Source: Promethearchaeota archaeon (lineage in GTDB: Archaea; Asgardarchaeota; Lokiarchaeia; Sigyniarchaeales; SOKP01). From it: DNA of 15,750 nt. Positions 1 through 3,350 of the stretch are shown here, one piece after another. Every line of letters begins with the position of its first letter. Positions within the stretch are counted from its first letter, which is position 1. The translations under genes and the position numbers were made by a program. Location of the stretch: assembly GCA_016839705.1 (NCBI GenBank), contig JAEOTR010000068.1, forward strand, positions 1 through 15,750, read 5' to 3'. The notes under the pieces are model-generated. The model was not told the DNA's origin. It ran no database searches and was given only the letters and a program-made list of their open reading frames with translations.

Positions 1-3000
1 ACAAAAGAATCTCCTTCAACCCATATTTTCCCTTTGTAATTATTTAAGATTCTCTCGACCAAAAGAAATCCTAAAATTATATCTTTAATTTTACTATCCT
101 TTTCTCTTTCTTTCTTGAATAGCATATTTTTCCCGATATTTAAGATCTCCTTTTGATAATCGATAAATTTTACTTTTATAAAATTAGTGTTATCTTGGTG
201 GCTTCTAAAAATAATAATTTTAAGTTTAATTATGGGATTTGGATTATATCTAATCGAACTGATAAGTATATTGACGAAAACATCTATTAGAAATTTATCA
301 GCTTTTACATATAGATCCTCAGAGGGTTGTTCAACAGTTATATTAATTCTTTTACTTGAATAACTGTTTGTAATAAAATCTTTAACATCGACGATAACAT
401 TGTTTAAATTTACTGGTTCAATTAAAACATTTGTTTGATTAATCATTGTTAATTTAAGTATTATGTCTATCAAGAGTTTACTATTTATACATTGATCTTT
501 AACATTTTCTAATATTTCTCTTTTGGATTTTAAAATAATTTGATTATCAGCCTTTTCATATTCGTTTAATGATAATTGAATGTTCTTTATTATAGAATTT
601 ATATCATTCACGAATAACTCTTTATAAAAATACTCTCTATCAAATTCTTGGTGGATTGTTTCTTCACTTATGCGTAAATGCTCTTCAGCTAATTTGCGTA
701 ATAATACATTTTTAAGAATATCTGAAATAATGCTTAGCAAGTCTAAATTTTCTTCTATCCAATAATCTCTGTCCTTAATATTATCAAAACTAATCATTGC
801 TTCCAAAATCCCGTTTATTTTTACTGAAAATGTTAAAAAATTTTTAGCTCTTTGATTATCAAGAAAAAACTTTAAATTTACTGCTTCAGTAGGAAGGCTG
901 TCTACACTTTTAATATACAAATAATCAGATTTTAGTAATTTCTCAGTTAACCATGGAAAATTATTCATTTGAATATTTTCAGGTAAACTTATTTGGGGAT
1001 AGATCACCTTTCTATACCAAACATAATTTCTTTTTATGAAGTTAAAATTTTCATTAAGAATGTAGAGGTACACTCGCGTTGCGTTAAAGAATTCGCCAAT
1101 ATCTCTAAGTGAATCTATTATTGCCTGATTAAAATCTAGTATACCTACAAACCTCGATACAATTCCTGTAATAATAGTTTTTAATCTGGAAATTTTCTTT
1201 AATTCCTCTTCTATTTTTTTCTCTTCTGTTATATTCTGACAAATTATTTGATAAAACGTTTCATCACCAATTTCAACTAAAGAAGATTGCATATTTACCC
1301 AAATGAGGTTGCCATTTTTTTGAAAAAGTTGAATTTCTAACGGAGGAAAATATTTGCCTCTTTCTTCTGTTTTCAATCTTTTAAGAACTTCTACCATATA
1401 ATCTTGATGGATTAGTGAAAGATCTACAAATTTTTTTCCCATTAATTCGTCTCTTGTATATCCTAATGTTTCTTCTAAAGCAGGATTAAAATCAACTAAA
1501 GAACCTTTAGGGTCGATTAGTAGAATAGAAAAAGGTGATTCTTTGAACAGATGACGATATTTTATTTCAGAATGCTTTAGTTTAATTTCTGCTTCTATTC
1601 TCTGACTAATATTTCGAATTATATATTGAACAAAGATTTGACCCCCCATCTGAACTTCATTAACACTGATTTCAATGGGAATAAGATTCCCAGAATTATC
1701 AATAACCTCTAATCTTAAAGGAAATGGGTAATCAAGCTGATCAAATACTTCTTCATTAAAATCTATATTAATAATACCACTTAATATTTGGCTTGAATGC
1801 AAACCAATAAAATTTTCAAATGGCCGTTGAAATAAATCCTCAGCTTCTTTGTTAACATCTATTATTATTCCTGATTTTTTATCAATTATTAAAATGGCAT
1901 CTCGAGCAGCTTTAAATAAAGCCTCATAACGCAATTCGGCCATTTTAAGCGCTTGAATCGAAGGTTTATATAAAGCAATTTGATTAATTATTGTACTGTG
2001 AATAGATTCAAGAATATCTACTACTTGTTTTTTATTTGAATAATTTTTTTTTATATCGTCAAATTGTTTAAGGATGAAAGAACTAAATTGGTTAATAATA
2101 TTCTTCGGAATTTTTTCATTGTAGTAAATTATTAAAGACAAGGGTAACAAACCACCTCTAATACTCTCATTGTGAACGTAGTCACTATAAATCGCGGCAT
2201 TAGAATTTAAGTGAGGAAATGGGAGAATTACTGAGGTTGGTCTAAATTCATCTCCTCCAAAAATTAACTGTGATATTGAAAAACTTTTTATGGATATCAA
2301 TTCTGGATTCTCAAAAGCATCTTTAGGATGAATCGCTTCGATTTTAATACCTAGATTTTCATCCCATCTACAAAATATTATCCCAATTTCTCTTCTTGGA
2401 GTATATTGATCAACTCTCTCTGCAATTTTAAGTGATAGCCAATTAAACGCCTCATCAATATTTATGTTTTTAATCCCACTTGTTAAAAATGATTTCATTG
2501 GCCTCTTTCCGAGTTTCTTCACTCCCATGGCTTCTTCTAGATCTTTTATATCTAGTTCTTTTAAATCAATCTTATTAAAAAGGATAAGAAGTGGCAATTC
2601 ACTTAATTCTGGTTTTCCAGCAATTTCATGTAGTAATTCGCGTGCATATGAGAATTTTATTTTATCAGAAACATCTAATACAAAAATCAACCCATCTTGA
2701 TTTTGTAGATAAGGTTTCCATACTTCCTTAACTTTATATTTTCCAGGTATATCGTGGGTTAATAAAGATAAATTATTAACTAAAATTTTAGAAATGTCTA
2801 CATTTATAGTTGGAAATATTGTCTTTGATACTGATTTTCTTCTCGTTCTAATTATTGTCGTTTTCCCCGCCAAAGAAAGCCCAAAAATTAGTATTTTTGC
2901 CTCCTTTTGTTCAAATATGACTTCTTCTTCTGGAAAAGAGATATGAAAAGTATTGAGTAATTTTCTAATTTCTTTTAGTTTAGTAGAATCTCCTTTATAA

Positions 3001-3350
3001 ATTTTAGAGTCCATATAAAAAGCCTTGAAAGCTTCTTCGATTTTTTTGAACTCTTCAACAAATCCCTCTAAAAACTCTTGAGCTAAAACAGAATTAATTT
3101 TGGATTTGCTATCAATAACTAATGAAATTAAAAGAAGCTCTTTTTCTGTTCCTGAGTAGGCACTCGGAATATCAAAGATTAAATTAGCTGTTTTAAAAGT
3201 TCCAAACGTATGTATAAAAAAACCGTTTTCATAGAGATCTATCAATAAGGGAACCTGTTTGATGTCTTCTCTTTGAATAGTTTCAGGGATTTTTAAAAAA
3301 ATTTTTGGATGAAAATATGGGTTCCGATGACTTAAAACTAACATTCTCAA
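1..3350 (-). CDS. Multidomain signalling protein, 3'-partial: longin/uDENN-like + Arf-like small GTPase + longin/uDENN-like + 2x PAS + GAF + degenerate (pseudo) histidine kinase
   Basis: Not in the ORF track because no stop codon falls inside the window. Manual translation gives an uninterrupted frame from TTG 3350 (ATG at 3344; GAGGT ~9 nt upstream of the TTG) to position 1. GTPase motifs: G1 GLSLAGKT (2882-2859), G2 PT (2813-2808), G3 DIPG (2753-2742), Arf-like WKPY..DGLIFVLDVSD, G4 NKID (2576-2565), G5 TSG (2483-2475), terminal AFNWL. PAS-like ELRYEALFKAARDAILIID..RNISQR (~1935-1600) and EIKYRHLFKESPFSILLID..NGNLIWV..QNITEEK (~1570-1220). GAF-like ~1140-700. HisKA/HATPase-like ~630-1, ending YKGKIWVEGDSF. 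Confidence 0.9.
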   Translation of the reverse strand, partial: MRMLVLSHRNPYFHPKIFLKIPETIQREDIKQVPLLIDLYENGFFIHTFGTFKTANLIFDIPSAYSGTEKELLLISLVIDSKSKINSVLAQEFLEGFVEEFKKIEEAFKAFYMDSKIYKGDSTKLKEIRKLLNTFHISFPEEEVIFEQKEAKILIFGLSLAGKTTIIRTRRKSVSKTIFPTINVDISKILVNNLSLLTHDIPGKYKVKEVWKPYLQNQDGLIFVLDVSDKIKFSYARELLHEIAGKPELSELPLLILFNKIDLKELDIKDLEEAMGVKKLGKRPMKSFLTSGIKNINIDEAFNWLSLKIAERVDQYTPRREIGIIFCRWDENLGIKIEAIHPKDAFENPELISIKSFSISQLIFGGDEFRPTSVILPFPHLNSNAAIYSDYVHNESIRGGLLPLSLIIYYNEKIPKNIINQFSSFILKQFDDIKKNYSNKKQVVDILESIHSTIINQIALYKPSIQALKMAELRYEALFKAARDAILIIDKKSGIIIDVNKEAEDLFQRPFENFIGLHSSQILSGIINIDFNEEVFDQLDYPFPLRLEVIDNSGNLIPIEISVNEVQMGGQIFVQYIIRNISQRIEAEIKLKHSEIKYRHLFKESPFSILLIDPKGSLVDFNPALEETLGYTRDELMGKKFVDLSLIHQDYMVEVLKRLKTEERGKYFPPLEIQLFQKNGNLIWVNMQSSLVEIGDETFYQIICQNITEEKKIEEELKKISRLKTIITGIVSRFVGILDFNQAIIDSLRDIGEFFNATRVYLYILNENFNFIKRNYVWYRKVIYPQISLPENIQMNNFPWLTEKLLKSDYLYIKSVDSLPTEAVNLKFFLDNQRAKNFLTFSVKINGILEAMISFDNIKDRDYWIEENLDLLSIISDILKNVLLRKLAEEHLRISEETIHQEFDREYFYKELFVNDINSIIKNIQLSLNEYEKADNQIILKSKREILENVKDQCINSKLLIDIILKLTMINQTNVLIEPVNLNNVIVDVKDFITNSYSSKRINITVEQPSEDLYVKADKFLIDVFVNILISSIRYNPNPIIKLKIIIFRSHQDNTNFIKVKFIDYQKEILNIGKNMLFKKEREKDSKIKDIILGFLLVERILNNYKGKIWVEGDSF

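Follow-up and report, generated by a model that had tools for sequence, protein, structure and literature searches.

A Lokiarchaeial fusion protein combines an Arf-like GTPase with a degenerate histidine-kinase module kept under purifying selection

Here we describe a protein of a Promethearchaeota archaeon (Lokiarchaeia; assembly GCA_016839705.1) in which a small Arf-like GTPase and PAS domains are followed by a histidine-kinase module, and provide evidence from sequence and selection that strongly supports the view of this module as catalytically dead but selectively maintained. The gene lies in a stretch of 15,750 nucleotides (hereafter, the window), which is the start of contig C60 in an assembly of 3.36 Mb with 31% GC, 93% completeness and 6.8% contamination. 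It occupies positions 3..3350 of the minus strand, on which all the features of the window described below are located, and represents a single open frame of 1,116 codons that begins with a TTG at 3350 and runs off the contig start. Judging by the orthologues of 1,123 amino acids, about seven C-terminal residues comprising the end of the last strand are missing. The module itself consists of a helical hairpin corresponding to the dimerization and histidine phosphotransfer (DHp) domain (residues 886-975, 426..695) and of a HATPase_c-like domain corresponding to the catalytic and ATP-binding (CA) domain (residues 976-1116, 3..425). The ~237 codons that encode it cannot be regarded as a chance open frame, because at 31% GC about 8% of random codons should be stops, and such a frame is expected with P ~1e-8 according to our own base-composition calculation.

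A search of the same genome with the C-terminal 237 residues gave six further matches, four of which are intact kinases bearing the full set of catalytic motifs: the F-x-H-D H-box, the N-box Glu with two Asn residues, D-N-G-I-G in the G1 box, G-M-G-L-G-L in the G2 box, and the I-W-V-E strand. These four paralogues score 56-75 bits with the Pfam HATPase_c profile; the window protein gives only 13.6 bits (E 0.095), below the cut-off of 26.4, and agrees with an active kinase in none of the hallmarks (H-box His, N-box Glu/Asn, glycines of G1 and G2). In the alignment, Asn915 (AAT, 606..608) takes the place of the His that is invariant in the H-box of the four paralogues and of 120 intact relatives. 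In the N-box (255..275), the Glu and the second, Mg-binding Asn, both 100% conserved among these 120 relatives, are exchanged for Val1026 and Ser1031, and the Ala for Ser1032, the first Asn (1027) being kept. The G1 box (144..161) retains Asp1064 followed by Tyr1065, Gln1066 and Glu1068 at the positions of Asn and both glycines, and in the G2 box (66..86) two of the three glycines are replaced by Asp1090 and Ile1092, with Gly1094 preserved. Thus, only Asp1064 and Gly1094 remain of the ATP-lid motifs D-x-G-x-G and G-x-G-x-G, and four of the five lid glycines are gone. Besides the adenine-contacting Asp1064, the protein has kept the F-box (Ile/Leu1077-Phe1078), the Y-x-G-x-I-W-V-E strand and the G3-like Gly1113/Phe1116.

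These data allow us to conclude that the module has lost the residues needed for ATP binding and phosphate acceptance and is a pseudokinase by sequence criteria. An earlier note on the window had already called it so, pointing to an Asn codon at 608-606 in place of the H-box His, to the loss of the Mg-binding Asn, to degenerate G1 and G2 boxes, to a retained YKGKIWVE strand and to a frame free of stops; our alignments bear out all of these observations, the codon position exactly. Its statement that every catalytic box is degenerate is true for H, N, G1 and G2 but slightly overstated, given the preserved Asp1064, F-box, Gly1094 and G3-like Gly/Phe. One might suppose that kinase activity persists in the module by way of an unusual ATP site and acceptor, since Asp1064, the F-box and the length of the lid have been retained within an intact frame. 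However, the module has neither the acceptor His nor the catalytic Glu, its Mg-binding Asn has been replaced along with four of five lid glycines, and the HATPase_c score is far under the cut-off, which makes such an activity highly improbable.

The same replacements were found far beyond the window. A search restricted to the kinase part revealed 76 proteins of the same architecture in metagenome genomes of Promethearchaeota (Lokiarchaeia), with identity in the kinase region ranging from 94% down to 41%. Among the ~73 C-terminally complete orthologues, all but one are devoid of the canonical His, bearing Asn nearly everywhere and Ser, Lys or Thr in four cases, and the N-box, G1 and G2 replacements are common to all of them. 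The new residues are essentially fixed: Asn915 in 93%, Ser1031 in 98%, Ser1032 in 100%, Tyr1065 in 93% and Ile1092 in 91% of the proteins; position 1090 is occupied by Glu in 95% of the orthologues and by Asp in the window protein. A whole-genome search detected full-length, stop-free copies in ~50 of the 161 genomes of the class, belonging to several genera. All 42 of the 42 close loci come from metagenome-assembled genomes (MAGs), with no cultured strain among them.

Furthermore, we estimated the strength of selection as dN/dS (omega) by the Nei-Gojobori method, pooling 15 phylogenetically independent pairs from 30 orthologous genes and calculating 95% bootstrap confidence intervals (CI). 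The omega values were 0.14 (CI 0.11-0.18) for the pseudo-CA and 0.22 (CI 0.17-0.30) for the pseudo-DHp domain, 0.15 (CI 0.14-0.17) for the rest of the protein (residues 1-885) and 0.09 (CI 0.07-0.11) for the GTPase, the lowest among all domains. Active kinases of the same genus served as a control, and their DHp-CA modules gave omega values of 0.11 for DHp and 0.15 for CA. The results clearly show that the dead CA domain is as constrained as live CA domains, and that the pseudo-DHp is about twofold relaxed yet far from neutral. This relaxation fits with the loss of phosphotransfer and docking constraints. As to the active PAS/GAF kinases of the genus themselves (loci L109-L138), their DHp-CA parts are 62-80% identical across many differently built proteins, with one outlier at 56%, suggesting a recent paralogue expansion or a domain shuffling of one kinase core.

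The earlier note had asked whether the losses are shared by orthologues and are under purifying selection, and had considered intact boxes in orthologues together with a neutral decay limited to this lineage as the opposite outcome. The former is what we observed; the latter was not seen, the crown group of the family, to which the window protein belongs, being uniformly degenerate and constrained. It is true that the contig ends inside the gene and that the MAG has 6.8% contamination, so that a dying gene or an assembly artefact might come to mind. However, the same residues are present in 76 independent database proteins, ~50 genomes carry the gene without stops, and omega is 0.14-0.22; on these grounds, we consider neutral decay or an artefact refuted. 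The module is not a product of decay because its orthologues share the replacements without stops, omega is low throughout, and the fold is kept (see below). A true pseudogene in the same genome looks different: the paralogue on contig C82 (9502-10704, minus strand, locus L007) has kept its H, N and G1 boxes but has acquired two in-frame stops (TAG and TAA), and is judged to be a truly decaying kinase, in contrast to the constrained pseudokinase. Contig C87 (14570-14803, minus strand, locus L009) contains a 78-codon frame that encodes no more of a kinase CA than the part from G1 to the C-terminus. This part looks intact, and the frame is either a gene fragment or the result of mis-assembly.

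The fold of the module was predicted by AlphaFold2 from an alignment of 72 sequences, with P0002, a 94%-identical orthologue chosen for its complete C-terminus, as the first row. The confident model (pLDDT, the predicted local distance difference test score, 83; predicted TM-score, pTM, 0.79) comprises a DHp hairpin (model helices 2-56 and 66-93) followed by an alpha/beta sandwich. Foldseek matched it to the EnvZ chimera 4kp4, HK853, YycG, RetS and DivL (4q20) with E from 2e-11 to 2e-8, the value of 2e-11 applying to HK853 and EnvZ; together with the match to a paralogue (E 6e-29), this indicates that the DHp-CA fold is retained and that the module is homologous to histidine kinases. A phmmer search of the module against PDB sequences gave no match at E up to 10. 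The former ATP lid is the only stretch of the model with low confidence, and at the same time its charged segment (residues 1079-1089, 84-116), which precedes the G2 box, forms with the latter the most conserved part of the module (mean column conservation 0.93) and is rich in conserved charges. The earlier note had suggested that the domain is kept as a dimerisation or allosteric scaffold. When two copies of the DHp-CA module were modelled as a homodimer, the scores were 0.29 and 0.15 versus the mark of 0.42, a result that speaks neither for nor against dimerisation.

How the kinase residues may have been lost can be read from distant relatives with the same longin/GTPase/roadblock/PAS front end, which carry a mosaic of kinase-box states. 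The protein L056 still possesses the His, the Glu, both Asn, G1 and two of the three G2 glycines and scores 63.7 bits with HATPase_c. L051 has kept the N-box and lost the His and the lid glycines (44.4 bits), and in P0077 (25.9 bits), P0162 and L043 the His and Glu are still there but the Asn and the glycines of G1 are not. In the crown group, all of these are lost, and the scores go from 21 (P0007, 21.1 bits) down to the 13.6 bits of the window protein. A maximum-likelihood tree, built from the longin and GTPase part only, i.e., independently of the kinase part, and rooted at the midpoint, nests these states in the order from near-intact to crown, mostly with strong support. On this tree the His was replaced at least four separate times (by Gln, by Asn, by Phe, and then by Asn/Thr/Lys/Ser), always where the ATP site had already been damaged, a pattern expected if ATP binding died first and thereby freed the acceptor to change. 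We infer that the ATP-lid glycines and the Mg-binding Asn were lost first, the His next, several times independently, and the catalytic Glu last, in the crown group. According to the scheme we propose, the DHp-CA module would have its origin in a Lokiarchaeial histidine kinase that was active and belonged to the family with an F-x-H-D H-box, and the stepwise loss would have taken place within the clade of longin/Arf-like-GTPase/roadblock/PAS/kinase fusion proteins. The present-day module would neither bind Mg-ATP nor be phosphorylated at the canonical site. Its fold, along with many new clade-specific residues, is under purifying selection of the same strength as in active CA domains.

An alternative conserved histidine, which the earlier note had named as an observation that would speak against its pseudokinase reading, does exist. 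His900 (CAC, 651..653) lies 15 residues upstream of Asn915 and does not vary within the degenerate clade, being present in 55 of 55 orthologues and in all degenerate divergent relatives, and the intact paralogues of the same genome have Arg, Lys or Glu there. Spo0B and ChpT illustrate that an architecture of a DHp and a pseudo-CA can act as a phosphotransferase, and one may imagine that His900 is phosphorylated in trans by an active kinase, the CA being a dummy, all the more so because most active relatives bear Arg/Lys where every degenerate member bears His. We therefore looked at a wider sample, namely the 148 newly returned proteins among the best 150 matches of an exhaustive profile search. 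Most of them have Arg/Lys at this position as well, but His occurs in eight of ~135 fully intact kinases possessing the canonical His, which rules out that His900 is exclusive to degenerate members; it also stands alongside the canonical His in the partly degenerate members P0077, L043, L045 and L052. Moreover, from helix geometry the 15 residues place His900 ~22 A N-terminal of the canonical site, above the four-helix bundle as judged by the helix lengths of the model, no linked gene for a partner kinase or receiver was found, and, unlike in Spo0B/ChpT-type proteins, the degenerate CA is combined with an Asn at the canonical DHp position. Phosphotransfer at this new site is thus very unlikely. 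Because intact kinases that keep the canonical His have it too, His900 is probably not a moved phospho-site; more likely, the clade inherited it as one form of a conserved basic residue that sits at the top of the DHp helix.

The GTPase (residues 147-310, 2421..2912) is intact and, as its omega shows, the most conserved domain of the protein. It matches Pfam Arf with 122.9 bits (residues 147-307) and Arf1 in the PDB with E 9e-24, and its P-loop (G1), D-x-P-G (G3), N-K-x-D (G4) and T-S-G/A (G5) motifs are conserved in 59 full-length orthologues, so that by nucleotide-binding motifs and Pfam score it belongs to the Arf family. Two features of Arf proteins are absent. The G domain is internal, following a domain of 146 residues, instead of beginning with an amphipathic helix, and switch II (residues 200-206, 2730-2755) reads D-I-P-G-K, with Lys at the position of the catalytic Gln of Arf/Ras. 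Lys is found here in most orthologues and D-T-P-G-Q in a few, which suggests that intrinsic GTP hydrolysis may be low or that a catalytic residue may be supplied in trans or in cis.

In the AlphaFold model of residues 1-475 (pLDDT 71, with the GTPase part at residues 140-210 below 50), each GTPase flank carries a strand-strand-helix-three-strand-helix domain of a longin/roadblock-like kind. The N-terminal longin-like domain (residues 1-138, 2937..3350) shows two strands, a helix, three strands and then further helices, and a Pfam search with it gave no match; the second, roadblock/longin-like domain spans residues 322-435 (2046..2387). The assignment of both flanking domains is a putative one, made on topology only. 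Foldseek with this 475-residue model returned mainly Arf and Sar, as well as the Rag-like structures 8zla/9m28, which cover the GTPase and the following domain, at a low TM-score, because the model is multidomain and the G domain is partly below pLDDT 50. Further downstream, Pfam recognizes two PAS domains (residues ~474-590 and 598-711, 1218..1931). The GAF-like region (residues ~725-880, 711..1178) is placed according to a Pfam GAF match at the equivalent position of the relative L045, Pfam finding no GAF in the window protein itself.

In other genomes, the longin/GTPase front end was also encountered in other contexts (L055, L057, L058, L062-L066), either alone (~320-330 amino acids) or with PAS domains only (~700-850 amino acids); L055 is a longer multi-PAS protein with the same front end, whose stop-to-stop open reading frame comprises 1,394 amino acids. 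By this distribution, the front end is a mobile module, with C-terminal outputs of several kinds. A Robl_LC7 (roadblock) gene standing on its own is located divergently upstream of the orthologue P0007 (L059:6634-7023, minus strand) and is not conserved in other loci, and further Arf-like GTPase genes lie at most 8 kb away in two loci (L059 and L060).

The surroundings of the gene bear on the question of where a signal might go. No response regulator or other conserved neighbour was found within 1.5 kb in 29 orthologous loci, and in two long contigs there was likewise none beside the gene. The genome encodes 10 receiver domains, one of which adjoins the intact paralogue on contig C86. The earlier note had proposed that PAS/GAF signals are output backwards through the N-terminal GTPase. 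We find this plausible because the GTPase is intact and the most conserved part of the protein, and there is no conserved response-regulator neighbour.

The main rival, which overlaps with this idea of backward signalling, is a receptor like DivL: the dead kinase would dock a phosphorylated response regulator or heterodimerise with an active paralogue and inform the GTPase via PAS/GAF, or else titrate or dephosphorylate a partner. DivL provides a precedent of a kinase with a replaced His that senses a response regulator and signals in reverse (PMC4211667; 10.1101/812529). Structural matches of the module include DivL (4q20) and RetS, besides the 10 receiver domains the genome encodes several active kinases whose DHp is closely related, the exposed charged residues around the H-box and in the former lid are very conserved, and Asp916, which adjoins the former His, is invariant. 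However, there is no conserved receiver-domain neighbour in the 29 loci or the two long contigs, and the DHp stretch after the H-box, with which canonical kinases dock their regulators, has one of the lowest conservation values of the protein (0.69-0.74), matched only by the GAF-like region. The omega of the pseudo-DHp is twice that of active kinases. In addition, members of the active family have a conserved Asn four positions downstream of the His, at the place of the HisKA phosphatase motif; it is not kept here, where Ser, Asn, Lys or Thr is found. With these points in mind, we regard a DivL-like receptor as unlikely.

Taken together, the results make it likely that the protein carries a catalytically dead, selectively kept structural or allosteric module with a dimerising bundle, a contact surface derived from the former lid, and an output through the state of the GTPase. 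As regards the functional part of this reading, the DHp four-helix bundle would join two chains and fix the register of the coiled-coil in the PAS/GAF part, a conserved contact surface would be provided by what used to be the ATP lid, and the GTPase, intact and with a longin/roadblock platform of its own, would supply in its nucleotide state the sole remaining enzymatic output. Several observations weigh against it. The twofold relaxed constraint on the pseudo-DHp relative to active DHp domains means that part of the module matters less, and a former lid so highly conserved and charged points to more than a scaffold, namely to a surface for a specific partner. Given the kept Asp1064, F-box and full-length lid, weak adenine-nucleotide binding may be possible. 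L056 is near-intact only, one of its G2 glycines being Asp, and, as the tree is rooted at the midpoint, the order of events rests on nestedness and on this near-intact protein. We also considered a more far-reaching scenario, in which a sensor histidine kinase of Lokiarchaeia became fused to a Rag/Arf-like GTPase bearing a longin/roadblock platform, the GTPase switch took over as output and phosphotransfer was given up, and the dead kinase acts as a dimeric receiver/transmitter with reverse signalling of the DivL type; this we hold to be rather unlikely.

With its fold kept, its catalytic residues lost and its orthologues under purifying selection, the module joins the pseudo-histidine-kinases. 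This is an established class, and degenerate kinase domains are well known as dimeric modules; what is new is their setting on an archaeal GTPase. In Spo0B/ChpT, in the kinase-related domains of plant phytochromes and in subfamily-2 ethylene receptors, a kinase-derived DHp with a degenerate CA has likewise persisted as a signalling module that works as a dimer. The acceptor His, missing from the window protein, is present in Spo0B and ChpT, and the plant proteins are eukaryotic and devoid of a GTPase. In DivL of Caulobacter, RetS-type proteins and PsmA of Streptomyces (PMC12963549), just as in the window protein, the DHp-CA fold lies downstream of PAS domains and has its acceptor His replaced; these proteins are retained by selection for non-catalytic signalling, as the window protein probably is too. 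DivL, however, has Tyr for His and keeps most ATP-binding boxes, whereas the window protein is degenerate at H, N, G1 and G2, is archaeal, and has a small GTPase with longin/roadblock domains as its partner in cis. The closest active counterparts are the PAS/GAF kinases of the same genome (C9, C42, C86), homologous to the module with E from 1e-16 to 6e-29 and 27-31% identity; they share with it the H-box flanks, the helix pattern, the F-box and the C-terminal strands, and differ in having all catalytic residues and a 9-residue insert before the last strand, and in the absence of a GTPase.

As for the first 470 residues of the window protein, the same architecture is seen in the Asgard longin/GTPase/roadblock proteins, including a Lokiarchaeota Rag-like GTPase (PMC10933270; PDB 8zla, 9m28), with the GTPase of the window protein being Arf by sequence score and resembling Arf, Sar and Rag by fold. 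The described proteins end after the roadblock domain (PMC10933270), and neither this paper nor the Arf-in-Asgard preprint makes mention of a PAS/GAF/kinase extension. The nearest functional parallel is provided by the conservons/actinobacterial G protein systems and Rup group 1 (PMC13343842, PMC4316618), which combine the same parts, i.e., a histidine-kinase-like sensor, a roadblock protein and a small Ras-superfamily GTPase. There, however, the parts are encoded by separate genes of bacterial operons, and the conservon kinase CvnA8 is active in ATPase and autophosphorylation assays (PMC13343842, PMC4316618); here, they form one fused chain with a dead kinase. A conservon proper is a four-gene cvnA-D operon (kinase, roadblock, CvnC, GTPase), and the gene described here is instead a single fusion without conserved neighbours, a CvnC homologue not having been searched for. 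A paper on Asgard sensor kinases mentions in passing one Lokiarchaeum kinase without its His (PMC10343646). Our literature search found no description of a GTPase-fused pseudokinase family, of Asgard GTPase-kinase proteins or of a graded series of kinase death.

The known pseudo-histidine-kinases amount to a handful of bacterial cases, very few of which have a mapped evolutionary path, and the fusion family described here supplies one. Its living intermediates on one conserved multidomain scaffold (near-intact; ATP-dead with the His; His lost; Glu lost) make the order of kinase death readable. In addition, the family physically joins PAS/GAF sensing to a GTPase that is eukaryote-like and carries a longin/roadblock platform, and does so in the Asgard archaea, whose many small GTPases still lack known inputs and regulators. 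Ordinary in principle, the family has its appeal as an evolutionary series and as a way into the GTPase signalling of Asgard archaea. If the GTPase is indeed the output, its members would lend themselves to identifying the signals to which a small GTPase of these archaea responds; and if the scenario of a rewired fusion were true, they would capture, in the archaea most closely related to eukaryotes, a stage at which small-GTPase signalling takes the place of two-component signalling.

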